Below, one piece after another: positions 7,382 to 20,320 of a DNA stretch of 24,000 nucleotides; position 1 is the stretch's first letter, and each line of letters begins with the position of its first letter. The notes under the pieces are model-generated. The model was not told the DNA's origin and did no database searches. It saw only the letters and a program-made list of their open reading frames with translations. Origin of the DNA: Chloroflexota bacterium (lineage in GTDB: Bacteria; Chloroflexota; Anaerolineae; DUEN01); assembly GCA_024277095.1 (NCBI GenBank), contig JAJRVX010000314.1:1-24000 (forward strand), in the 5' to 3' direction. The position numbers and the translations under genes were made by a program.

Positions 7382-10300
7382 TCATCTTTCCGCCGTTTTG
7401 CCGGATGGGTCAAGCTCCTGCACCTGCCCCTGGGGATCGATGCGAAAGCGGCGCACGTACTCGGCGGGCAGCTCGAACGCGAATCGGGAGGGCAGGCGAA
7501 CGAAGCCATCGCCGCGATCGCGTACAGAGCAGAGGAACAGTCGCTCTCGCGCCCGGGTCATACCCACGTAGAACACGCGACGCTCCTCGGCCAGCGCCTC
7601 CTCCTCCTCCATGGTCGTCCACAGAGGCAGATTCTCCTCCTCCACACCGACGATGATGACCACCGGGAACTCCGTTCCCTTGGCGTTGTGAAGGGTCATC
7701 ATCGTCACCCGGTCCCCTTCCGTCCCCGTGCCCTCGACGTCCAGGCTGGTGACCAGGGCCTGATGGTCCAGGAAGGCATCCAGCGAGAGATCCCGGCTGA
7801 AGCGTGCGAAGCTCGCGAGGTAGGCCATGAAGTTCTCGCGCATGGCGCTCCAGGCCTCATCTTCGGCCATGGGCGGGGGCGGTACGGCCATCAGGCGCCG
7901 CGCGAGCTCATCCAGTCGAGCGCGCTCCCCCGCCGGCAGTTGCGCCACGATGTGTTCCTCCAGCGGGGGCGCGAGCTCTCGCGTGCGCAATGCGCCGTGC
8001 CATAACGCCCGGTTCTCGTCCTCCAGATCGACCTCGGCGTCCAACAGGCCCAACCCCACCCACGGGAGCATCTCCGGCAGGGCATTCAGCGCCAGCTGTC
8101 GCCGGTTCTCCTCAAGCAAGGCGAGCAGGAGCATCTGTGTCTGCTGGACATCCTGGGCCGCGCGATGCTCAACCGCCTCGCCCAGCCTCAGCCTGCGTAG
8201 GAGGTGTTCCAGGCTGTAGCTGTGTTCATCGGGCAGCAGGCGCTGGGCCAGCGACAGGGTGTCCAGCGCCGGGTTGCGAAAGGAGCGTCCCAATAGCCGG
8301 GCGGCCTCCCGATCGACGAACCGGTTGTCAAACGCGATGATGTTGTGCCCGGCCACCGTGGACTCTCCCACATACGCCAGGAATCTCGGCAACACGACCT
8401 CGATGGGATCCGCGTCCTTCACATCGGCCCAGGAGATGCCGTGCACCTTCGTCGCCGCCGCCGGGATGGAGCCCCGGGCGGGGCGTACCAGGGAATAGAA
8501 TGGTGGGGCCGCTTCTCGTCGGTGTTCCATGACTTGGGCCCCGATCTCCACGATCTCATCCCGACGGGCATTCGTACCCGTAGTCTCCAGATCATACACC
8601 ACGAACCGGCCGTCGGCGAGGGTCTCATAGGTCGCCAGGATATCCTGTGCCAGCCTCCAGGCGATGGCGGCGAGGGGCTGGCCCACTGCGCGCTGGGGCG
8701 GGACGTGCACGGTCAGCGCCGGCTCCCCCTCGGTGACGAGGTTCAGTTGCGGGCTGTCCAGCGACGCGTCCAATTGGGCGGCGACGGGGTAGGCCAGATA
8801 GTCCCGCAGGGCGCGGCACAGGATGGCTGCCGCGCACGCACCGTCGATCGTGGGGGGAGCGTAGACGGTGAAGGGTACACGGCGATCCAGCCAATCGCGA
8901 ATCCGGGCCACAGCGTCGGGGCGGGCGGAGAACTCGGCCCAGTCGAGCAGCCGCCGCCACTCTTCGGGGTCAAAAGGCCTGCGGCGGACCGCCAGGGTAT
9001 CCAGCAGCCGTTCCACGATCACGGTGACCGGCTGATGAGCGACCGGACGCAGTTCCTCCTCGAAGAGTTGGAGGAAGGAGCGTAAGGCCGCCCGGGTCAG
9101 CGGGCTGAGTTCAGGGAAACGATCGCTGGAACGGACCAGCTCTGCTAGGCTGATCTGATGACGGTGCGCGAGCCGCTCTAGCTGCATGATGGTCAGTTCG
9201 TCCACCAGCGTTCGCGGGAAGTTGAGGGCGGCGATCACCTCCTGGTCCGGCGCGGAGGCCAGTGAGCGCAATAGATGTAGATAGCGGATCACCTCGCGCA
9301 CCAGGGGGCGCCGGAAGAAGTGATCTTTTTGCACGCGGTGTACCGGGATGCCGTGCTGGACCAGGTAGCCCTCCAGCGGGTCGGCCAGCCGGTGGGTGCG
9401 GTACAGGATCGCGATGTCGCCATACCGATAGCCCCGCTCCTCGTGCAGCCGGCGGATCAGGGCGACCAGCCAGGCTTGTTCCTGTTGAGCTGTGGCGAAA
9501 ATGTAATGGTAGATGGGATCGCCGCGCGGGTGAACGGTGCGAAGGTAGGTCCGTCGCTTGGGGTCTCGCCAGGGAGGTGCCTGGCCGCGGGCGATCAGCC
9601 ACTGGGCGGCGTAGAGGATTGTCTGAGTGGAACGGTAGCTCTGCTCGAGCACGATCACGCGCGGGCGGTAGCGGCGCTGGAACCGATCGATCAGCGATGG
9701 CTGAGCCCCCCGCCAGCCGTAGATGGACTGGTCGCCGTCGGCGACGACGGTGATATCGCTTCCCGGGGAGGCCAGCAGGGTCAGCAGATGGTATTGGGCC
9801 AGGTTGATATCCTGGTACTCGTCCACTAGCACATGGGGCAATTGCGCCTGTACCTGGCGACGGATATCTGCCCGGCCCGCCAGCAATTGCACGGCGTAAT
9901 AGATCAGATCATCGAAGTCGAGGGCCTGGTGTTTTTGAAGCCAATCCTGATAGGCGCGCGCGACGTCTGCGTAGATGATCTCCATCTCCTCCCGGGCCGG
10001 AGAGCGTGCTGGATCCTGCATGGCGCCCTTTCTGCGGCTGATGTAATCCTGCAAGGCGTGGATCGGGTATAGCTCCGGGCTGAGGTCCAGCTCTCGCAGT
10101 GCATCCCGCAACGCCTGATGCTGCATCTCCTCGTCGGCGACGATGAAATCGGCAGGCAGATCGATGGCCTTGCCGTGCTCGCGCAGGAGACGGAGGCCGA
10201 CGGCGTGGAAGGTGTGAAGCCAGATGTCCTCGCCGGATAGGCCTGCCACCTGTTCAAGGCGTGCACGCATCTCCTCGGCAGCCCGGTTCGTGAAGGTGAC

Positions 10301-10501
10301 GGCCAGGATGCGGTCGGGCGGGACGCCTCGCTGAGTGATGAGGTAGATCGCTCGATAGGTGATGACGCGCGTCTTGCCGCTGCCGGGGCCGGCGATGACG
10401 AGCAAAGGCCCTGCCGGCGCTGTTACCGCCTCCCGTTGACGTGGGTTCAGGGCAGAAGCTAGATCTTCCCAGCTTCGCTCCAGTCCTTCGGTCATCGCCA
10501 T
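7382..10501 (-). CDS. UvrD/PcrA-family SF1 DNA helicase with a nested DnaQ-like DEDDh 3'-5' exonuclease domain
   Basis: 1039 aa. Helicase motifs: Q (LNPRQREAV), I (AGPGSGKT), Ia (AVTFTNRAA), II (VLVDEYQD), III (VVADGDQSIYGWRGA), IV (LEQSYRST, about aa 285), V (TLHNAKGTEFPVV, about aa 936) and VI (VFYVGMTRARERL). Between IV and V are ExoI FVVYDLETTG (about aa 633), ExoII GHNIIAFDNRF (about aa 719) and ExoIII HRAAQDV (about aa 779). Confidence 0.9.
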   Translation of the reverse strand: MAMTEGLERSWEDLASALNPRQREAVTAPAGPLLVIAGPGSGKTRVITYRAIYLITQRGVPPDRILAVTFTNRAAEEMRARLEQVAGLSGEDIWLHTFHAVGLRLLREHGKAIDLPADFIVADEEMQHQALRDALRELDLSPELYPIHALQDYISRRKGAMQDPARSPAREEMEIIYADVARAYQDWLQKHQALDFDDLIYYAVQLLAGRADIRRQVQAQLPHVLVDEYQDINLAQYHLLTLLASPGSDITVVADGDQSIYGWRGAQPSLIDRFQRRYRPRVIVLEQSYRSTQTILYAAQWLIARGQAPPWRDPKRRTYLRTVHPRGDPIYHYIFATAQQEQAWLVALIRRLHEERGYRYGDIAILYRTHRLADPLEGYLVQHGIPVHRVQKDHFFRRPLVREVIRYLHLLRSLASAPDQEVIAALNFPRTLVDELTIMQLERLAHRHQISLAELVRSSDRFPELSPLTRAALRSFLQLFEEELRPVAHQPVTVIVERLLDTLAVRRRPFDPEEWRRLLDWAEFSARPDAVARIRDWLDRRVPFTVYAPPTIDGACAAAILCRALRDYLAYPVAAQLDASLDSPQLNLVTEGEPALTVHVPPQRAVGQPLAAIAWRLAQDILATYETLADGRFVVYDLETTGTNARRDEIVEIGAQVMEHRREAAPPFYSLVRPARGSIPAAATKVHGISWADVKDADPIEVVLPRFLAYVGESTVAGHNIIAFDNRFVDREAARLLGRSFRNPALDTLSLAQRLLPDEHSYSLEHLLRRLRLGEAVEHRAAQDVQQTQMLLLALLEENRRQLALNALPEMLPWVGLGLLDAEVDLEDENRALWHGALRTRELAPPLEEHIVAQLPAGERARLDELARRLMAVPPPPMAEDEAWSAMRENFMAYLASFARFSRDLSLDAFLDHQALVTSLDVEGTGTEGDRVTMMTLHNAKGTEFPVVIIVGVEEENLPLWTTMEEEEALAEERRVFYVGMTRARERLFLCSVRDRGDGFVRLPSRFAFELPAEYVRRFRIDPQGQVQELDPSGKTAER

Positions 10502-10560: not shown

Positions 10561-10594
10561 GTAAAAAGGGGCCGCTTGGAGATCGCGGCCCCTT
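10561..10594 (-). terminator. Intrinsic terminator after the dksA/traR-like gene
   Basis: The minus strand reads GGGGCCGC-(9-nt loop)-GCGGCCCC followed by TTTTTAC. Stem arms are at 10585-10592 and 10568-10575, and the T-tract is at 10563-10567. Confidence 0.6.
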
Positions 10595-10616: not shown

Positions 10617-10946
10617 TCATCGTTTGGAAGCCGCGCAGTTGACGCACAGCTTGGTGTCGGGCAGGATCTTCAACCGCTCCGGGTCGATGGGCTGACCACA
10701 CACCTCGCAGATCCCGTAACGTCCTGCCCGCGCCTTTTCCAGCGCCTCTTCCAGGGAAGCGATCTTCTCCTGAAGGCGCTCACGCTCGGCCAGGTTCATC
10801 TCCCATTCGTAGATCATCGCGTTACCCTGGCCCAAGCCGAAGTCAGGGCGCTCTGCCAGCTGTTCTTCGACGGCTGCCAGCTTCTCCCTGGCCTCGGCCA
10901 ACTCTTGCTCCAGACGGGCGACTTCAGCCTGCGTTGTTGTGGTCAC
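10617..10946 (-). CDS. TraR/DksA-family C4 zinc-finger protein with an N-terminal coiled coil
   Basis: The C-terminus CEVCGQPIDPERLKILPDTKLCVNCA is a CxxC-x17-CxxC zinc finger, and the N-terminus looks like a heptad-like coiled coil. I chose the GTG at 10946 because AAGGAGG lies 5 nt upstream. The longer tracked form starts at a TTG (11054) with no SD. Confidence 0.75.
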   Translation of the reverse strand: MTTTTQAEVARLEQELAEAREKLAAVEEQLAERPDFGLGQGNAMIYEWEMNLAERERLQEKIASLEEALEKARAGRYGICEVCGQPIDPERLKILPDTKLCVNCAASKR

Positions 10947-11104
10947 CCTACCCTCCTTTGGCTCATACCACCGGGCCGCCGCGTGGAAAGGGAACGACAA
11001 ACGCCGGGGCCCACCGCCATTCCTCAAAGTCGAAGAGGAAATTATGCGCGCCAATACGCAACCGGCCTGGTCCGCTCTTTCCGAATTGGGGTACGAACCA
11101 GATA

Positions 11105-11344
11105 TCAGCCGGTTCGGTTGGGAGTCTTAAAGCGGAAGGTGATCCGTCCCCGGGTGAGGTCATACGGGGATAGCTCTACCCGCACCCGGTCGCCTAACAG
11201 AACCCGGATGTAATGCCTTCGCATCTTGCCCGACAGGTAGGCCAATACCTCATGGCCATTGTCGAGCTCAACGCGGAAGGTGGCGTTAGGCAGTGCTTCG
11301 ACGACTGTCCCTTCGACTGAAATCTTTTCTTCCGTTTTCGCCAT
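11105..11344 (-). CDS. infA: Translation initiation factor IF-1
   Basis: [73 protein letters not shown] is an unmistakable IF-1 S1/OB-fold sequence. It has a 6-aa C-terminal extension (TPNRTG). Confidence 0.95.
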
Positions 11345-11427
11345 CGCGCTTCTTTCCTCTATTCATGAAACATGGTGTGGGGCACGCCGCTGCCCTGGGA
11401 ATCAGGGCGGCGACGCCCCCCGAATCA

Positions 11428-11637
11428 TCATCTTCTTGCTTCTCGCTCTGCACGCTTGCGAGCTGCCCGACGAGCCTTGCGGATGGCTTTCTTGCGTTTC
11501 AGACGCCGAAGCTCGCTCTTCGGTGTGAACCAGCGCTTCTTGCGCACGGTGCTGAGGATCCGCTCCTCAGTCACCGCTTTGCGGAACCTTTTCAGGAGAC
11601 TCTCGGGAGATTCCCCTGGTCGCAGTTCGACGGTAAT
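11428..11637 (-). CDS. rpsU: 30S ribosomal protein bS21, apparent AUU start codon (absent from the ORF track)
   Basis: Hand translation of the minus strand gives (I/M)TVELRPGESPESLLKRFRKAVTEERILSTVRKKRWFTPKSELRRLKRKKAIRKARRAARKRAEREARR, then TGA at 11430-11428. This is 69 codons and typical of S21. An in-frame TGA at 11646-11644 leaves only GTA, GCC and ATT before the conserved N-terminus. GGGAGGTGA (11652-11644) precedes the ATT at 11637. Confidence 0.85.
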   Translation of the reverse strand: MTVELRPGESPESLLKRFRKAVTEERILSTVRKKRWFTPKSELRRLKRKKAIRKARRAARKRAEREARR

Positions 11638-11698
11638 GGCTACTCACCTCCCTCTATATTGAGATCGTTTCGCGTAAGGGGATGACGCCCTCCTATGG

Positions 11699-11736
11699 CA
11701 ACAAAAACCTCGGTGCGCTATCCGCTTTCACCGAGG
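11699..11736 (-). terminator. Intrinsic terminator (possible attenuator) 62 nt upstream of rpsU
   Basis: The minus strand reads CCTCGGTG (11736-11729), a 13-nt loop, CACCGAGG (11715-11708), then TTTTTGTTG (11707-11699). Confidence 0.6.
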
Positions 11737-11891
11737 CTTATGGGCGTCTCATGGGCTCCGGTCCAGACCCATTCGCGTGCCGCATGCTCCAGTTCCCGGA
11801 AAGCTCATACCTCCGTCTCTGTCACATGGGCGCCCCCCACGCCGCAGCCTCCTACATTGGCTTGGCCGGTGATTCCTCACCAGCCATCAAC
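11700..11891 (-). promoter_or_regulatory. Candidate structured 5' leader or cis-regulatory RNA (about 190 nt) preceding rpsU-infA
   Basis: It lies between a consensus promoter and the terminator and has no credible ORF. A 9-bp hairpin is capped by a GGAA tetraloop (11885-11864). Hand-found long-range pairings are GAGGCU (11851-11846)/AGCCUC (11738-11733), GGGCG (11835-11831)/CGCCC (11746-11742) and CAUG (11828-11825)/CAUG (11753-11750). The AGCCUC strand overlaps the terminator's 5' arm. Confidence 0.45.
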
Positions 11892-11895
11892 GTGT

Positions 11896-11924
11896 ATTAT
11901 ACCAAACGACCGTTGCGGTGTCAA
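11896..11924 (-). promoter_or_regulatory. Consensus sigma-70/SigA-type promoter (TTGACA-17 nt-TATAAT) with an A/T-rich upstream tract
   Basis: On the minus strand, TTGACA is at 11924-11919, the spacer CCGCAACGGTCGTTTGG is exactly 17 nt, and TATAAT is at 11901-11896. The upstream tract ACATAACATAAAAAGTTATCGC (about 11930-11951) looks like an UP element. Confidence 0.65.
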
Positions 11925-11981
11925 GCAGAAGCGATAACTTTTTATGTTATGTATAGCCGTGCGTTTTTGTTATCCCGTGCG

Positions 11982-13625
11982 TTATGTCAACTTGCTACCT
12001 TGATCCTCTTCCCGATCGCGCTGCCGCAACGCAGCCTTCACGCGTCGCCATATCTCCTGTACCCGCCTGGCATCTTCCGGCTGAAGCGGATGCGCGCTGT
12101 AACGGGCATCGACGAAGGCCTCCGTCAGCGATGTCAGATCCTGTTCGATCTCGGGCCAGTGAGCCGTCAGATCGACCTCATACTCATGAGGGGTCTCAGA
12201 GGGTTGTCGGGGAACCCCCCGATCGGAGGCCCGCCGCACAGTGGAGAGATAGAAATAGCGCACCCGCTCTCGCGGCCCCAGCTTGCGCAGGCTTAGGAAA
12301 CGCCAACGGGGCACCCCCCCACCACCTGCCGATGCCAGCGTGAGGGCGATCATGGAGCGAACGCGCTGGCCGAGCCGCCGCGTTCGCCCGCGCCAGGTTT
12401 GCCACCAGGCGCGCCACCAGTGCCACAGGCGGCGCAGCCATCGGCTGTCCAGGCGAATGCCCCGCCCGCCCAGATAGGCGATCACCGAATAGCCGATGAT
12501 GCCGGCCATGAGCAGCCAGACCAGGGCGCCGCCGAGCCAGTCGGGCAGATGCAGGCTGCTGGTGGCGATATCCGGGGGCTCTGGAGGGGGCCGCAGGGCC
12601 TCGGCCGCCGGGGCCTGTTCGCTTCCGAGCCCCAGCAATCCCAGAAGCCACGCGAATAGGGCGAAGAAGAGCAGGAGAGCGGCGTACGAGATCTGCATCA
12701 TGAAGTTGATCACCGCCGCCAGGATGCGTGCCATCGTGAAGGAGGACCCAAACGGCAGCAGCGCGGCCAGCAACCCGACAAGGGCCAGCATGCCGATGCC
12801 CAGCCTCCCCCAGCGCCGCACGAGCTCGGGGTCCGTGTCCGTTCCCTCGTACCGCCAGCGGGCTCGCAGCACGGCCAAGCGTCCCTGGCTGATCAGCAGG
12901 AGGCCGCCCAGGAAGTAGATGACCAGGGCGCCCTGGAGCATCGGTGTGATCCCCAGGTGTCGGATGCCGATCAGCTGTCCGACGGCTGGCTTTAGCTCTA
13001 CCCGTGACAGCCCCGCGCACAAGGCCAGGAGCACGCCTCCCCACAGCCAGTACGTGCTGAACTCCCTCAACAGCATGGAGCGCGACGGATGTCGCGCGCG
13101 TATCTCGTTCCAATCCAGGTCACGCGCGGACAGCGGCCTGACCACCAGTTCGTCCGGCTTCAGGGACATGCGCTCGAGTGCGCCCATCATCGCGGTGCTC
13201 TGTCCCCAGACGATCAGCGTCAAGATCCCGAGGAAGAACGACGTGCCATCGAAGAAGCTCAGCGGGGAGCGCAGCCATTGCGAGAGCAGCGTGGCGGTTG
13301 GCCATTGTCCCTTGACGTAGAAGGCGAGGAGCCGGGCCGCGATGAGTAGAAGGCAGATCTCGCCGAATCGAAACCGGAAGGTGCGTCGATCGCGCCGCTT
13401 CGACGCGGCCAGCCACAGCGTGGTGTATACTGCCTCCAGAGCGACCAGCGAGAGGAACGGGAGCACGGCCCCGCGTCCCCACCCGGGGATCGCCGCCTGC
13501 GCCATGGCGATGAACCCGATGGCCAGGCATGTGGCCAGCAGGGCAACCATGAGTGGCCGGAGGATCCCTCGCAGCCACAGGCTATCCTGGGACATAAGGC
13601 TTTGTTCCACAGGGGCCTCGGCCAT
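11982..13625 (-). CDS. Polytopic membrane protein with a C-terminal DUF4129-like domain
   Basis: 547 aa. The first 400 or so residues contain many hydrophobic segments. The C-terminal soluble part (PRERVRYFYLSTVRRASDRGVPRQPSETPHEYEVDL...AFVDARYSAHPLQPEDA) resembles DUF4129. The SD GGGGAGGGGG lies 2 nt upstream of the ATG (GGAGG core about 5 nt upstream), inside the end of the upstream gene. Confidence 0.7.
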   Translation of the reverse strand: MAEAPVEQSLMSQDSLWLRGILRPLMVALLATCLAIGFIAMAQAAIPGWGRGAVLPFLSLVALEAVYTTLWLAASKRRDRRTFRFRFGEICLLLIAARLLAFYVKGQWPTATLLSQWLRSPLSFFDGTSFFLGILTLIVWGQSTAMMGALERMSLKPDELVVRPLSARDLDWNEIRARHPSRSMLLREFSTYWLWGGVLLALCAGLSRVELKPAVGQLIGIRHLGITPMLQGALVIYFLGGLLLISQGRLAVLRARWRYEGTDTDPELVRRWGRLGIGMLALVGLLAALLPFGSSFTMARILAAVINFMMQISYAALLLFFALFAWLLGLLGLGSEQAPAAEALRPPPEPPDIATSSLHLPDWLGGALVWLLMAGIIGYSVIAYLGGRGIRLDSRWLRRLWHWWRAWWQTWRGRTRRLGQRVRSMIALTLASAGGGGVPRWRFLSLRKLGPRERVRYFYLSTVRRASDRGVPRQPSETPHEYEVDLTAHWPEIEQDLTSLTEAFVDARYSAHPLQPEDARRVQEIWRRVKAALRQRDREEDQGSKLT

Positions 13626-13636
13626 ATCCCCCTCCC

Positions 13637-14851
13637 CTATCGGATGCGCTCACCCGCCCCGGCCGGCGAGCGCCAGAGATCGAGATCTCGCTCATAGGCG
13701 ACCAGATATGCCGGGAATCCAAGATGGTGGGCCCGCTGTCGTGTCTTTTTGAATTGAAGGCTGGGCTCCACCACGATGAGGATGGCGTTCAGGCCGGCCC
13801 GTCGCAGCCGATGAAGGGCCTGGCAGGTCGCCTCATCCCCCTTGGGCGTGATGGCGATCACCGTCGTGCCCCATCCGAGGTCCAGGGTGGCCTCGCGCAT
13901 CCACGCGGCGAAGGGCGGCCGCTCCTCGCGGGCCAGCTCGATGCGGGCCAGCACCTCCAATACCTTGATCAGGTTTCCTCGCCCGGAGCGAGGCGGGAGC
14001 CCCGCTGCCCATCCTCGTCCGCTGACGGGGTCATGTCCGTTGGTGAACAGTCCCACCGGCTGGCGTTGCTCCGCCAGATGGTGGGCGATGGAGGCAGCCA
14101 CGACGATGGCCCACTCGCTGGCGTGGATGGCCTGTCGCTGCTCGTACTCCGCCGCGTTCAGGTTTAGCAGGAGGGCCGTTTCCAGCGAGATGGCGGGGTC
14201 CAGCTTGGTCACCAGGAGCCCCCCCGCGTGGGCGCTCGCCTTCCAGTGGATACGGTGAAGCGGATCTCCCGTCTCATAGTCGCGCAACCCGCTCACGCGC
14301 ACGGGGTCCTCGAACAGGCGCTGGCGGGTTCGTATTGCTCCAAACGGCAGTTGAGAGGAGATGCCCAGCTGCGTCAGGGGGACGATGCGCGGATAGACGG
14401 TGATGTGATCCTCTTCCGGCTCCTGGACCTGCGCCTCAGCGAACCCGAAGAGATCGCCGGTGCGAAAGCTGGCCGGCCCCAGCGCGTAGTAGCCCCGCTG
14501 CCGGCAGTCTAACGTGTATGTGATGGTGGCGTGGCCATGTGCGGGCAGCGTGACCACTCGACGCACGAAGTTCGGTGAGTGCAACATCAGGGGGACCGAT
14601 TCGCTGACGCGCAGCCACGGGACGGGCAGCCAGCTTCGGTTCTCGATGCGAAGCTCGACCCGCACCTGATCTCCCAGGAATGCGTGGTCCGCGTACGCGC
14701 GTCGGATCTCCAGCCGGCTTGCCACGCGCCTCACCCACCACCGGGCGGCGATCCAGGTCCCGAAAAGGACATATATAATGTAAAAGATGAACTCAATGCG
14801 TAGCAGGATGAAGAGGGCGAAGAGCAGGATGATGAGAAACGGGATATCCAT
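13637..14851 (-). CDS. DUF58 family protein (vWA-like partner of MoxR ATPases) with an N-terminal membrane anchor
   Basis: 404 aa with the DUF58 hallmark LRDYETGDPLHRIHWKASAH. The N-terminus is hydrophobic (MDIPFLIILLFALFILLRIEFIFYIIYVLFGTWIAARWW). SD AGGGAG lies 7 nt upstream. Confidence 0.85.
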   Translation of the reverse strand: MDIPFLIILLFALFILLRIEFIFYIIYVLFGTWIAARWWVRRVASRLEIRRAYADHAFLGDQVRVELRIENRSWLPVPWLRVSESVPLMLHSPNFVRRVVTLPAHGHATITYTLDCRQRGYYALGPASFRTGDLFGFAEAQVQEPEEDHITVYPRIVPLTQLGISSQLPFGAIRTRQRLFEDPVRVSGLRDYETGDPLHRIHWKASAHAGGLLVTKLDPAISLETALLLNLNAAEYEQRQAIHASEWAIVVAASIAHHLAEQRQPVGLFTNGHDPVSGRGWAAGLPPRSGRGNLIKVLEVLARIELAREERPPFAAWMREATLDLGWGTTVIAITPKGDEATCQALHRLRRAGLNAILIVVEPSLQFKKTRQRAHHLGFPAYLVAYERDLDLWRSPAGAGERIR

Positions 14852-14907
14852 TCACGGGCTCCCTGGCCCCAAGGTGCACGTTTCGGTATCTCCTCGGCGG
14901 GCGGTGA

Positions 14908-15888
14908 TCAGCGCAGCTCCCCGATATCCAGCTCCACCTGTTCCAGGATGTCTTCGATGATCTGTACGGCCGTCCGGCCTCGCAGCGCGCTCTCGGGGTG
15001 GACGATGCAGCGATGTGCCAGGGTCAGGGGGGCCAGCTCTTTCACGTCATCGGGCAGCACGAAATCGCGGCCGCGTATGGCCGCCAGGGCCTGGCTGCCG
15101 CGGAACAGCCCCAGGCTCCCGCGCGGGCTGGCTCCTAGAGCCAGGTCGGGGTGATGGCGCGTGGCCTGTACCAGCCGTACGATGTAGTCGCGCACGGTGT
15201 CGTCCACGTGAACGTCCCAGATCCGCTGAGCCAGGTCCGGGACGCGATCCCCGTCTACTACTGACTCCAGTCGCTCGATGGGATGCTGACGCCGCAGGTT
15301 GAGGAGCATGAGGGATTCCTCCTCTGCGTCCAGATAGCCCAGGCTGAGCTTCAGCAGGAAACGGTCGAGCTGTGCCTCGGGCAAGGGGAAGGTGCCCTCG
15401 TACTCGATGGGATTCTGGGTGGCCAGGACGAGGAAAGGGCGTTTCAGAGGATAGGTGATCCCGTCCACGGTGACCTGGCGCTCGCCCATGCACTCCAGGA
15501 GGGCGGCCTGCGTGCGGGGGGTCGCGCGATTGATCTCGTCGGCCAGGAGGACATTAGAAAATACCGGCCCGGGGCGAAACTCGAATTCGCGGGTCTTCTC
15601 ATTGAAGACGGAGACGCCGATCACGTCGCTGGGCAGCAGGTCCGGGGTGCACTGGAGCCGCCTGGCCGTCACCCCCAGGGAGGCGGCGATAGCCCGCGCC
15701 AGCATGGTTTTGCCGACGCCCGGGACGTCCTCCAGTAGCACGTGGCCCTCGCACAGCAAGGCCACGACGATGTACTCGATTGTGCGCCGCTTGCCGACGA
15801 TCACCCGTTCGACGTTCTCGATCACCCGCGCCGCGAAATCTTGGATCTCTTGCACGCTCTGCCCCCAACGCTCGTCTTGTGAGGGCAT
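14908..15888 (-). CDS. MoxR-like AAA+ ATPase
   Basis: Walker A LEDVPGVGKT, Walker B VLLADEINRA, and ATQNPIEYEGTFPLPEAQLDRF. I chose the ATG at 15888 (MPSQDERW...). The tracked ORF extends to a GTG at 15924 with no SD, so either start is possible. Confidence 0.9.
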   Translation of the reverse strand: MPSQDERWGQSVQEIQDFAARVIENVERVIVGKRRTIEYIVVALLCEGHVLLEDVPGVGKTMLARAIAASLGVTARRLQCTPDLLPSDVIGVSVFNEKTREFEFRPGPVFSNVLLADEINRATPRTQAALLECMGERQVTVDGITYPLKRPFLVLATQNPIEYEGTFPLPEAQLDRFLLKLSLGYLDAEEESLMLLNLRRQHPIERLESVVDGDRVPDLAQRIWDVHVDDTVRDYIVRLVQATRHHPDLALGASPRGSLGLFRGSQALAAIRGRDFVLPDDVKELAPLTLAHRCIVHPESALRGRTAVQIIEDILEQVELDIGELR

Positions 15889-15945
15889 TGTACCGCCGAT
15901 GGTATGGTTTGACAAGGAGGGCACGATTTTTGTTGCCGATACGTA

Positions 15946-17002: not shown

Positions 17003-17072
17003 TCTAGGTTTAATGTGCCCATGCTAGTGTGTGCTATTGTTAAGCATCGTGGGCTCATGGAGGTAAGCGGGC

Positions 17073-17984
17073 ATGATCGAGGTGGAGGACCTCACCAAGG
17101 TCTATGGTGACTTCGCTGCCATCCAGGGGGTCACCTTTCGGGTGGAGCGCGGCGAGGTGCTGGGTTTCCTGGGGCCCAATGGCGCCGGGAAGACGACGAC
17201 CATGCGGATCCTGACTGGCTTCATGCCGCCCACCGCCGGCCGCGTTCGAGTCGCCGGATATGACGTCTTCGAGAACTCCCTGGAGGCCCGGCGACGCATC
17301 GGCTACTTGCCGGAGAGCGTGCCTCTCTACCCGGAAATGACCGTGGTCAGTTACCTGAGCTTCATCGCATCCGTGCGCCGGGTTCCTGATCGCCAGGAGG
17401 CGGTTGAGCGGGTCATGGAGAAGCTGGGGCTGGATGATCATGCGGATGTGATCATCGGAAAGCTGTCCAAGGGGTATCGCCAGCGGGTTGGCTTGGCCCA
17501 GGCGCTGGTCCACGACCCCGATGTGATCGTCTTGGACGAGCCGACCATCGGGCTTGATCCCAAGCAGATCATCGAGGTCCGCGAGCTGATCCGCAGCCTG
17601 GGAGGGGATCACACCGTGATCTTGAGCACCCACATCCTGCCCGAGGTCAGCCAGGTATGCAGCCGCGTCCTGATCATCAACGAGGGGGAGATCGTGGCCG
17701 AGGACACGCCCGAACGATTGACGGCTCGCCTGAAGGGCGGGGAGCGGATTTTCGTTCACCTGGCGGATGGCGCGGCCGGCGTAGAGGAGGCGCTGGGCGC
17801 CATCGATGGGGTGCAGGAGGTGGCCCGCGTGGGGGATGGAAAGTACGAGGTCACCTGTGCCCTGGGGCGGGACGTGCGTCCCATCTTGGCGCGTACGCTG
17901 GTGGAACGCGGTTGGGATCTGCTCGAGCTGCGTCCCATCGGCATGAGCCTGGAGGAGGTCTTCCTGAAGCTCACGACCGAATAG
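17073..17984 (+). CDS. ABC transporter ATP-binding protein (ABC-2 / GldA-like subfamily)
   Basis: Walker A GPNGAGKTT, signature LSKGYRQR, Walker B VIVLDEPT and the H-loop context ILSTHIL. SD GGAGG lies 9 nt upstream. Confidence 0.9.
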   Translation: MIEVEDLTKVYGDFAAIQGVTFRVERGEVLGFLGPNGAGKTTTMRILTGFMPPTAGRVRVAGYDVFENSLEARRRIGYLPESVPLYPEMTVVSYLSFIASVRRVPDRQEAVERVMEKLGLDDHADVIIGKLSKGYRQRVGLAQALVHDPDVIVLDEPTIGLDPKQIIEVRELIRSLGGDHTVILSTHILPEVSQVCSRVLIINEGEIVAEDTPERLTARLKGGERIFVHLADGAAGVEEALGAIDGVQEVARVGDGKYEVTCALGRDVRPILARTLVERGWDLLELRPIGMSLEEVFLKLTTE

Positions 17985-18041
17985 ACATAGAACCCCCATG
18001 CCCGCGCACTCAACCTTACAAACGGAGGTGACGAGGGCCCT

Positions 18042-18764
18042 ATGCGGAACGCACTCATCATCGCCCGACGGGAGCTCGGGGCCTATTTCGCTTCGCCGAT
18101 CGCCTACGTCGTCATCGCAGCCTACCTCGTCGTCATGGGGATTCTGTTCTCCCTGATCGTGGCGGGGCGGCCGGGGGCTGAGGCCTCTCTCCGGTTCGTG
18201 TTCGGCAACATGTTCAGCGCGATCATCCTGATCATCGTCGGTCCACTGCTGACCATGCGGCTGCTGGCTGAGGAGCAGCGATCGGGCACCATCGAGCTGC
18301 TCCTTACCTCGCCGATACGGGATTGGGAGGTGGTGCTGGGGAAGTATCTGGCCGGTTGCGTGGTCTTCCTCGCCATGCTGATCCCCACGCTCGTTTACCC
18401 GCTGCTCATCGAGCGCTTCGGGAACCCCGACCATGGCATGTTCGTCACTACTTATGTGGGCGTGACCCTGCTGGGGATGGCTATCCTTGCCCTGGGGCTG
18501 CTGACGTCGGCTGTAACCCAAAATCAGATCGTGGCGGCTTTCTTGGGGTTGGGATTGATCCTGGTCCTGACCTTCACGCAATTCCTGGCCACGGTGGTCA
18601 GCGGGCCGCTGGCCGATGTGCTGACGTATCTGGGGTTGTTCAGCCATTTCTTCGACTTCCTGCGGGGTATCATCGACACGCGTGACGTGGTCTACTATCT
18701 CAGCGTGACCATAGGAGCGCTCTTCCTGACGACGCAGATCTTGGGGACGAGGAGGTGGCGCTGA
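18042..18764 (+). CDS. ABC-2 type transporter permease (GldF-like)
   Basis: 240-aa hydrophobic protein with about 6 predicted membrane segments, immediately after the ATPase. SD GGAGGTGA is upstream. Confidence 0.8.
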   Translation: MRNALIIARRELGAYFASPIAYVVIAAYLVVMGILFSLIVAGRPGAEASLRFVFGNMFSAIILIIVGPLLTMRLLAEEQRSGTIELLLTSPIRDWEVVLGKYLAGCVVFLAMLIPTLVYPLLIERFGNPDHGMFVTTYVGVTLLGMAILALGLLTSAVTQNQIVAAFLGLGLILVLTFTQFLATVVSGPLADVLTYLGLFSHFFDFLRGIIDTRDVVYYLSVTIGALFLTTQILGTRRWR

Positions 18765-20320
18765 TGATGGACTCATTGCGGCGAGGCGCCCCTTATCTGG
18801 CCGGTGTTGGGATCGTGGCTATCCTGTTGTCCATTGCGGCACGAGTCCTGGGCAGTGATCCTCCATGGCTGCCCGAGGCTCTCCTGAGTCTTGGGGTTGT
18901 GCTGGTCATCAGCTTCGCGCTCCTGCGGCCGCGCGAGGTGGTGGCTGCGCTTACCGGTCGCCGGGCGCGCTACGGCGGGAACGCTTTGTTGCTTAGCGTT
19001 GCCTTCCTGGGAATTCTGACCACGGTCAACATTCTCTCCGATCGTCACCATAAGCGATTCGATCTGACGGAGAGCAAGCAGTATACCCTGTCCCAGGAGA
19101 CGATCCAGATCTTGCAATCGCTGGAGAGACCGGTCAAGGTGACGGGGTTCTTCACCCCTGGTGATCCCCGTCAGACCGATGTAGAAGATCTGCTGAAGGA
19201 GTACGCGTACCACAGCGACCAGTTCACCTATGAGTTCGTTGACCCGGAGCAGCGTCCCGGTGAGGCACGTCGATTAGGCGTAACCAGCTATGGCGTTCTG
19301 GTGTTTCAATCAGGGGATAAGCGACAACAGACGTTCGGATTGGATGAGGAGGATCTGACCAGCGCGCTGCTGAAGGTGTCTCGTGATGAGCAGAAGGTGG
19401 TCTACTTCACTACTGGACATAAAGAGCGCAACCCAGAGGGCTTTCAATCGGCCGACTACGGGAATGTCGGGCGGATCCTGGGGATGGATAACTATAACGT
19501 CGAGCTCTTGAACCTGGCTACCATCACAGACACCATCCCCGCTGATGCCGCGGCGATCGTTGTGGCATCGCCGCAGATCCCTTTCTCCCCGGACGAGATC
19601 TCCTTGCTGGATAAGTGGCTGGAGGAGGGAGGTCGACTGATGATCCTGGCCGACCCCCCGGCGCGGCGGGGCGAAGAAGATCCCATGGCTGCGTTTTCGG
19701 AGATGCTGAAGAAGTGGGGGGTTCGCCTGCGTGACGATCTGGTGTTGGACCCGGCCAGCGCCTTCTTCGGCGATGCCGCGTCTCCTCTGGTGACCCGCTA
19801 TCGGTTCTCAACGATCACCAAGGATCTGGGGGGGCTGACCTCTTTCTTCCCTCTGGCCCGCTCCATTGAGCAGGTCACCCCAGAGCTGCCGGAAGAGGAT
19901 CTCGTCGTTACGCCGCTGATCGAGACCAGCAGGGATAGTTGGGGGGAGACGAATCTGACGGAGCAGCAGGCACGCTACGACGAGGGCGAGGATACCCGTG
20001 GGCCCTTGGTCCTGGCCATTACGGTGGAGTATCGGGAACGGGGAAGTCGGCTGGTCGTGTTCGGTGATTCCGATTTCGCTTCTAACGCCATTCTGAACAG
20101 CGTGCGAGGGGCTTTCGGCAACGCGGATCTGTTCCGGAACAGCGTGAATTGGCTGGCGGAGGAGGAGGCGTTGATCGCCATCGGCCCCAAGCCGCCTGAT
20201 ATCCGGACGATGCAACCGCTGACACCAGCTCAGCAGAAGCTAATCTTCTACGGAACGGTGGTTTTCCTGCCGCTGATCGTACTGGCGTTGGGCGGCGCGG
20301 TCTGGTGGGAGCGGCGATGA
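18764..20320 (+). CDS. GldG-like ABC transporter auxiliary component
   Basis: N-terminal membrane segments, then RHHKRFDLTESKQYTLSQETIQILQSLERPVKVTGFF, which is GldG / ABC_transp_aux-like. There is a C-terminal anchor (LIFYGTVVFLPLIVLALGGAVWW). I chose the ATG at 18764, which overlaps the permease TGA by 1 nt, with GGAGG 8 nt upstream. Confidence 0.8.
   Translation: MMDSLRRGAPYLAGVGIVAILLSIAARVLGSDPPWLPEALLSLGVVLVISFALLRPREVVAALTGRRARYGGNALLLSVAFLGILTTVNILSDRHHKRFDLTESKQYTLSQETIQILQSLERPVKVTGFFTPGDPRQTDVEDLLKEYAYHSDQFTYEFVDPEQRPGEARRLGVTSYGVLVFQSGDKRQQTFGLDEEDLTSALLKVSRDEQKVVYFTTGHKERNPEGFQSADYGNVGRILGMDNYNVELLNLATITDTIPADAAAIVVASPQIPFSPDEISLLDKWLEEGGRLMILADPPARRGEEDPMAAFSEMLKKWGVRLRDDLVLDPASAFFGDAASPLVTRYRFSTITKDLGGLTSFFPLARSIEQVTPELPEEDLVVTPLIETSRDSWGETNLTEQQARYDEGEDTRGPLVLAITVEYRERGSRLVVFGDSDFASNAILNSVRGAFGNADLFRNSVNWLAEEEALIAIGPKPPDIRTMQPLTPAQQKLIFYGTVVFLPLIVLALGGAVWWERR

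Follow-up and report, generated by a model that had tools for sequence, protein, structure and literature searches.

A UvrD/PcrA-type helicase with a nested DEDDh exonuclease domain in Chloroflexota and Candidatus Poribacteria

The 24,000-nt stretch analyzed here (positions 1 to 24,000 of contig JAJRVX010000314.1, from the Chloroflexota bacterium assembly GCA_024277095.1; hereafter the window) includes a gene encoding a superfamily 1A (SF1A) helicase with all the motor motifs of this group and, between motifs IV and V, a DEDDh-type exonuclease domain. By sequence profiles, the region around the exonuclease is a degraded RecJ-type DHH domain, so that the protein, referred to below as the nested helicase, is doubly nested: an exonuclease within a DHH remnant within helicase domain 2B. 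The best overall explanation, which we hold to be rather more probable than its opposite, is that this insert makes the protein a self-contained enzyme for unwinding and 3′-end degradation.

Domain layout, conservation, and distribution

The initial annotation, made from the DNA alone, had proposed a UvrD/PcrA-type helicase with a complete DEDDh exonuclease between motifs IV and V, and Pfam, NCBIfam, and phmmer searches agree on this (Table 1). Membership in the SF1A UvrD/PcrA/Rep superfamily is supported by matches to PF00580 (7.5e-77) and PF13361 (5.3e-48), and by a Foldseek match to UvrD/PcrA (E 1e-37). Domains 1A and 1B contain the Walker A sequence GPGSGKT, with its lysine at K43 rather than at K42 as first given, as well as motif Ia, the DEYQ motif (D227/E228), and motif III (Q258, R264). 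Residues 286-506 contain motif IV (R290) and a degenerate GIG site (NFPRTLVDELT, aa 427-437), and the C-terminal part of the motor has motif V (TLHNAKGTEF) and motif VI (VGMTRAR). The distance from R290 to G942 in motif V is about 650 aa, as originally estimated.

The interruption is visible in each of these comparisons. The Pfam UvrD_C match is split, its last stretch covering aa 891-992 (5.3e-48), with UvrD_C_2 at 933-990, and the NCBIfam PcrA, Rep, and UvrD models each match the protein in two stretches. In a phmmer search against the PDB, residues 12-506 align with PcrA 6-494 and residues 889-1016 with PcrA 513-646; from this two-block alignment, approximately 380 residues (aa 507-888) replace about 18 in PcrA (495-512). 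By the published domain limits of UvrD and PcrA (for UvrD, 2B covers residues 378-550), the insert is inside domain 2B; its first placement, in the 2A/2B region, stands and can be narrowed to 2B specifically.

Pfam recognizes an RNase_T domain (the DEDD exonuclease family) within the insert at aa 634-788 (1.4e-29), and the NCBIfam PolC-exo, DinG-exo, and DnaQ models match aa ~626-812. The ExoI (YDLETTG), ExoII (GHNIIAFDN), and ExoIII (HRAAQD) motifs are found where they had originally been placed, and the assignment to the DEDDh group follows both from these motifs (D637, E639, D725, H779, and D784) and from an RNase H-like fold. The PolC exonuclease domain structure 2p1j matches the DEDDh domain at 2.3e-24 by sequence (36% identity) and at 7.4e-46 by profile. 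An AlphaFold2 model of the whole protein (predicted local distance difference test score, pLDDT, 89.6; predicted TM-score, pTM, 0.84) gives the insert two helices, an alpha/beta unit at aa ~544-600, a helix at 610-623, the DEDDh core at 633-805, and a helical region at 809-916. For a model of the insert by itself (pLDDT 89.3), the Foldseek neighbors are PolC-exo, DinG-exo, epsilon, ExoX, and ExoI; the target-normalized TM-scores (TMt) of the DEDDh domain to PolC-exo, epsilon, and DnaQ are 0.78-0.86, with root-mean-square deviations of 1.8-3.3, in keeping with the DEDD fold that had been suggested.

The true start of the protein is probably M3, the second ATG of the open reading frame (ORF), at 10495. 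This has an AGGA 5 nt upstream and would give a protein of 1037 aa; a database cluster 100% identical to the helicase (P0002) is also 1037 aa long.

Table 1. The nested helicase gene, its parts, and the adjacent terminator-like element (window coordinates).
Feature	Coordinates	Strand	Evidence
Whole gene, nested helicase-exonuclease	7382..10501	-	Uninterrupted ORF, 1039 aa (ORF list and translation)
Helicase domains 1A/1B, aa 1-285	9647..10501	-	Pfam UvrD-helicase aa 18-278, 7.5e-77
Domain 2A N-terminal part and first part of 2B, aa 286-506	8984..9646	-	PcrA alignment up to residue 494
Insert part 1, aa 507-632, N-terminal half of degenerate RecJ-type DHH domain	8606..8983	-	Profile and hhalign
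Insert part 2, aa 633-805, DEDDh (DnaQ/PolC-exo-like) exonuclease	8087..8605	-	Pfam, PDB, Foldseek
Insert part 3, aa 806-888, C-terminal DHH remnant and helices back into 2B	7838..8086	-	hhalign, AlphaFold2
Rest of 2B and 2A C-terminal part, aa 889-1039	7385..7837	-	Aligned to PcrA 513-646; Pfam
Intrinsic-terminator-like hairpin and U-tract	10563..10594	-	Between dksA/traR-type gene and helicase; sequence and RNA fold

The nested architecture defines a family. When the insert alone was used as query, a word-indexed search retrieved about 40 clusters (at 90% identity) that share this Pfam architecture and are 1000-1110 aa long; their named members come from Anaerolineae and Chloroflexi metagenome-assembled genomes (MAGs). 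An exhaustive HMMER search of 1.84 billion representatives gave 57 clusters (at 50% identity) with E<=1e-30, most of them 1000-1130 aa long and matching at about residues 490-900; Pfam confirmed the nesting in six full-length representatives (1029-1134 aa). The distribution study that had been called for was made as a genome scan, with one genome per GTDB species. It yielded 80 loci, from which 74 full-length genes were extracted: about 30 of the loci are in Chloroflexota MAGs (Caldilineae, at 72% identity, Anaerolineae, Caldilineales, Chloroflexia, and Roseiflexaceae) and about 45 in Candidatus Poribacteria, many of the latter on closed chromosomes. One member, L095 (uncultured bacterium, CBDURE010000029.1), is very divergent (branch length 1.86) but retains the nested architecture; its source is an unclassified MAG that falls in neither of the two main phyla, and its DHH remnant is even more eroded than in the others.

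The catalytic motifs, described at the outset as intact, are so throughout the family. All 74 full-length members have K43, T44, D227, E228, Q258, R264, R290, G942, and R975 in the motor and D637 and E639 in the exonuclease; D725, H779, and D784 are each present in 73. This retention of catalytic residues in about 74 species genomes implies strong purifying selection on both active sites. Residues at the insert junctions (R507/P509 and W884) are likewise conserved across the two phyla.

Nearly all sampled Poribacteria carry the nested helicase, which has the distribution of a core gene there; in Chloroflexota its occurrence is patchy. Of 81 genomes sampled from the phylum to which the Poribacteria genome G301 belongs, 73 have it, usually as a single copy, with tandem pairs in two (G321:C28:55879-60551 and G335:C1:5359872-5364534). 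Among 300 sampled genomes of the window's own phylum, only three others (~1%) match the whole insert, and no such match was found in 34 sampled genomes of the source MAG's class. The source MAG (G000) consists of 577 contigs, with 7.7% contamination. As the nested helicase is absent from its sampled class but present in other classes of the phylum, contig C228 may not belong to the majority organism of the bin.

A tree of the helicase core (a quick IQ-TREE calculation with the insert removed, midpoint-rooted for drawing only) separates five canonical PcrAs, from both phyla, from all of the nested helicases by a branch with 100% support. The Poribacteria nested helicases form one clade, also with 100% support. 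This pattern would fit a family that arose once and was later transferred between phyla.

The nested helicase is an extra PcrA/UvrD-type paralog, beside a canonical PcrA. In the source genome the latter is encoded on contig C182 and keeps the PRGIG sequence and a Tudor-like end, and each of the five other genomes tested has likewise retained a canonical PcrA. The nested helicase itself scores far below the equivalog cut-offs for this group (TIGR01073, 469.6 vs. 911 bits; TIGR01075, 381.7 vs. 1144; TIGR01074, 407 vs. 951). The GIG motif of domain 2B, NVPKRGIGASTI in PcrA, is NFPRTLVDELTI in the window's helicase. The family-wide consensus at this site is FP[RE]T.[IV]D[DE]LT, with a nearly invariant D434, RGIG having become RTLV(DELT). 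The tail after motif VI (R983) varies from 36 to 101 aa across the family and forms two short strands in the model, and the nested helicases have no Tudor-like C-terminal domain. Without GIG and Tudor, they probably no longer use the canonical duplex grip or the RNA polymerase tether. In Foldseek comparisons, the modeled helicase body is closer to the DNA-bound closed forms of UvrD/PcrA (TMt 0.83-0.84) than to the apo forms (0.68-0.71).

A RecJ-type DHH domain around the exonuclease

The sequences flanking the exonuclease had at first been called unassignable, but profile and hhalign comparisons match them to a degenerate RecJ-type DHH domain. A profile built from 16 inserts (A2) and searched against the PDB matched 2p1j, epsilon, DnaQ, Cas2-DEDDh, DinG-exo, and ExoX and, at profile positions 14-76, residues 58-119 of RecJ (8y30; E 2.6e-5). 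The exhaustive search described above also gave a class of proteins of 720-760 aa, which match the insert well past the DEDDh core. Their Pfam order (shown on P0120) is DHH, RNase_T, DHHA1, RecJ_OB; judging from these domains, they carry putative 5′-3′ and 3′-5′ single-stranded DNA (ssDNA) exonucleases in one chain. The class comprises P0112, P0118, P0120, P0121, P0128, P0131, P0144, P0152, P0153, P0161, and P0189, none of them in the window. No paper describing such RecJ-DEDDh proteins was found in a literature search of mostly open full text.

A profile of 11 of these proteins (A3) was compared with that of the inserts by hhalign, giving a probability of 100% and an E-value of 5.4e-59 over 325 aligned columns. 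Insert positions 20-350 correspond to RecJ-DEDDh positions 66-431, including the RecJ GTxADxVPLxxENR region. On the strength of this match, the insert represents an entire DHH domain of the RecJ type, complete with a DEDDh domain at the same internal position; since it aligns to a RecJ that already has a nested DEDDh, the helicase architecture is doubly nested.

The DHH motifs themselves have fared differently in the two groups. In the RecJ-DEDDh proteins they are intact (GDRDVDG, VDCG, DHH, and ADxVPL). In the nested helicases, motif I (GDxDxDG) has become APPTIDG in the window's protein and APxTxDG family-wide: its DxD is absent from all 74, while the third aspartate (D553) is kept in 69 of them. 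Motifs II and III fall in a region that is missing or shows no conservation, and the motif IV aspartate is lost. With its metal motifs gone, and with no DHHA1 or OB domain, the nested helicase does not qualify as a RecJ/DHH phosphoesterase. Because these motifs are lost, the DHH part is probably a catalytically dead scaffold. The loss is moreover a derived state, so that the helicase most likely acquired the module from a gene of the RecJ-DEDDh type.

Canonical RecJ, without a DEDDh domain, was present in six of the six genomes checked, including the source genome, and a RecJ-DEDDh query of 150 genomes of the phylum (E<=1e-60) recovered only the C-terminal halves of canonical RecJ proteins. 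DEDD-bearing ORFs of ~700-730 aa in this phylum were considered as possible RecJ-DEDDh proteins and rejected, their Pfam content being DEDD, GIY-YIG, and UVR domains. These Cho/UvrC-like proteins (of the NCBIfam PRK07883 type; e.g., L008:223-2358 and L010:184-2340, both on the - strand) are the commonest DEDD-bearing ORFs in the phylum.

Possible functions of the nested helicase

By analogy with PcrA and UvrD, the motor would load on ssDNA at a nick, gap, or 3′ tail and translocate 3′ to 5′, while the DEDDh domain, by homology, would remove nucleotides from a 3′-OH end. Held on 2B by the dead DHH scaffold, the exonuclease might sit near the fork junction and digest a 3′-ended strand, most plausibly the displaced strand released at a nick. 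In complexes of PcrA and UvrD with DNA (3pjr, 2is6), domains 2B and 1B are at the duplex or fork junction, whereas the tracked strand leaves 1A with its 3′ end trailing; for this reason, 2B should be a better position for an exonuclease acting on the displaced strand than for one acting on the tracked strand. A single polypeptide would then do the work of UvrD and ExoI or ExoX in nick-directed excision repair. The source genome encodes MutL, with two MutL_C loci (C555 and C136); a search of it for the ExoI C-terminal domain, in which the E. coli control was the only positive control, gave no match.

In canonical UvrD, Rep, and PcrA, a conformational switch of domain 2B turns unwinding on and off. 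It is conceivable, although we regard it as doubtful, that in the nested helicase this switch gates the exonuclease that 2B carries, with the displaced 3′ end fed into the DEDDh site. The protein would then be a single-protein excision machine, serving Poribacteria as a core repair enzyme and derived from a captured RecJ-DEDDh module whose dead RecJ site acts as scaffold.

Several points count against an unwinding and 3′-end degradation enzyme built in this way. The family's function is read from sequence and predicted models, and the choice of strand from the PcrA/UvrD complexes. RecJ is not among the top 50 Foldseek hits of the insert-only model, a list dominated by DEDDh hits; the DHH assignment therefore depends on sequence profiles. 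As for the donor lineage, taxonomic labels are available for a few RecJ-DEDDh proteins, which are from MAGs of Hydrogenedentes and Spirochaetota. With the GIG motif lost, unwinding could be weak, in which case the motor may be only a translocase. Finally, a DEDDh domain of this kind can also take RNA as its substrate: RNA substrates are reported for the Bacillus and Listeria DinG exonuclease (PMC12525004, PMC12774634).

This last point bears on an RNA-directed enzyme, in which the motor would strip or unwind structured RNA or RNA:DNA hybrids (R-loops), leaving the RNA 3′ end to be trimmed by the DEDDh domain, by analogy with the exo(ribo)nuclease activity reported for exonuclease-bearing DinG. 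Its DEDDh is related to the DinG exonuclease (8zef), and the Chloroflexota loci often adjoin rpsU and infA, an adjacency that is, however, not seen in Poribacteria. The nearest relatives of the exonuclease are the DNA proofreaders PolC-exo (36% identity) and epsilon, its host belongs to a DNA helicase family, and there is no Tudor domain, the part by which PcrA/UvrD are tethered to RNA polymerase; we consider an RNA substrate unlikely. It also seems improbable that the two activities are uncoupled, with the motor serving only as a translocase or anchor, or the exonuclease being regulatory rather than processive; such a protein might be a tethered trimmer, or a protein-displacing translocase that polishes ends. 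Two things would fit: UvrD-family monomers are generally poor helicases, and the nested helicases have lost the GIG motif, on which duplex contact depends in UvrD and PcrA. Against this, conservation of both active sites and of the insert junctions across two phyla points to an integrated function, and the pTM of the AlphaFold2 model suggests a defined arrangement of the domains.

For an anti-phage helicase-nuclease, of the Gabija GajB or another UvrD-like type, the PADLOC models for GajB and for a DRT-associated helicase match the core, and that for a Cas-associated DEDDh matches the exonuclease. These matches reflect generic UvrD and DEDDh homology only. No GajA or other defense gene was found in the window or at the relatives' loci, no neighbor family is conserved across the nested-helicase loci, and their context is one of housekeeping genes; presence in most Poribacteria genomes, mostly in single copy, is the pattern of a core gene. 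With generic matches and without partner genes, the protein does not belong to Gabija, and a defense role, which we judge very improbable, was rejected. An artifact, whether mis-assembly, a frameshift fusion, or an intein-type selfish insert, is hardly credible. The source MAG is fragmented and contaminated to the extent given above, but the reading frame runs on from the insert into motifs V and VI, the residues at the junctions are conserved at the protein level, and Pfam finds no Hint/intein domain, so that the insert does not class as an intein. The architecture recurs in over 70 independent assemblies, some of them closed chromosomes of Poribacteria, which disposes of the assembly or frameshift error that had been raised as a possible objection. 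A self-contained enzyme for unwinding and 3′-end degradation remains the explanation that we prefer.

Gene context and related systems

The gene for the nested helicase stands alone on the chromosome, in surroundings of a housekeeping kind. Upstream of it, in the same orientation, come an rpsU-like gene, infA, a dksA/traR-type zinc-finger gene, and then a terminator-like element consisting of GGGGCCGC, a 9-nt loop, GCGGCCCC, and TTTTT, with a 10-bp GC-rich stem. It starts 22 nt past the stop codon of the dksA/traR-type gene, and was missed by a consensus terminator scan because that scan was limited to loops of 8 nt. The statements of the initial annotation that the gene follows a terminator, and that its neighbors include no uvrA/B, mutL, or defense genes, both proved accurate. 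Downstream is a convergent GH127 glycosidase gene, and further upstream is an operon for MoxR AAA+, DUF58, and DUF4129 (membrane) proteins (11982-15924, - strand), which is syntenic with the helicase locus in the relatives L016 and L017.

The low-GC gap between this operon and the dksA/traR-type gene (11055-11981, - strand) contains infA (11105-11344) and the rpsU-like ORF (11428-11574). Transcription of rpsU-infA-dksA/traR is probably driven from 11924-11896, where there is a promoter that matches the sigma-70 consensus perfectly (TTGACA-17-TATAAT, extended by a TG). Genes for S21 and IF-1 also adjoin the helicase in the distant Chloroflexota relatives L016-L018. The DksA/TraR C4 zinc-finger protein (10617-11054, - strand; 145 aa) begins with a long coiled coil and matches EAD9 weakly, and its gene is conserved only in the closest relative, L016. 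An ORF at 17055-18776 (- strand; 573 aa) has no Pfam match at E<=0.001, and an Rfam scan of the window found no RNA family.

A close relative is syntenic at this locus, and more distant Chloroflexota loci keep rpsU, infA, and MoxR nearby. Clustering of all ORFs within 4 kb of the helicase across 74 loci found no family common to the Chloroflexota and Poribacteria loci, and a conserved operon partner was rejected.

Helicase-nuclease fusions are central to DNA repair, and to our knowledge every characterized one (RecB, AddA, AdnB, WRN, exo-DinG, Dna2) has its nuclease at a terminus. The nuclease here is instead inside the mobile 2B lobe that regulates SF1A helicases, and seems to be carried on a dead RecJ domain. 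If the activities are coupled, the family would offer a natural experiment on control of a second catalytic site by 2B movement, a compact unwinding-and-degradation enzyme, and a clear example of a captured domain in which one active site was subsequently lost. Its frequency in Poribacteria suggests a core genome-maintenance role in a phylum without cultured members. The architecture had been thought uncharacterized; consistent with this, a full-text literature search, mostly without subscription journals, turned up no paper in which a DEDDh domain nested in a UvrD-type helicase is described.

The nested helicase-exonuclease is a variant of the known helicase-nuclease fusions, not a new category. 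With PcrA, UvrD, and Rep (3pjr, 2is6, 1uaa) it shares the motor motifs and the 1A/1B/2A/2B body (PcrA match, E 5.7e-104), but it has a 380-aa insert in 2B, lacks GIG and Tudor, and falls far below the equivalog cut-offs. RecB, AddA, and AdnB also join a UvrD-like SF1A motor covalently to a nuclease; theirs, however, is a C-terminal PD-(D/E)xK endonuclease, the proteins work as hetero-oligomers at double-strand ends, and their 2B domain has no nuclease. The exonuclease-bearing DinG of S. aureus and B. subtilis (8zef) likewise has a helicase and a related DEDDh domain in one chain, but DinG is a superfamily 2 (SF2) 5′-3′ helicase with an N-terminal exonuclease, whereas the nested helicase is SF1A, would be 3′-5′ by homology, and has its exonuclease in 2B. 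WRN combines a 3′-5′ helicase with a 3′-5′ DEDD exonuclease; unlike the nested helicase, it is eukaryotic, and has an SF2 RecQ motor and a terminal DEDDy domain.

The remaining comparisons concern the insert. RecJ and the RecJ-DEDDh proteins (P0120-type) resemble it in that it is homologous to the DHH domain, with the DEDDh nested at the same position; having lost DHH motifs I-IV, and lacking DHHA1 and OB domains, the nested helicase is not expected to act as a RecJ-type nuclease. The closest relatives of its DEDDh domain are those of PolC, the Gram-positive replicase (2p1j). The DEDDh domain of PolC is itself nested inside another domain, PHP. PolC therefore provides a precedent for a nested DEDDh exonuclease, although its host is a polymerase rather than a helicase.

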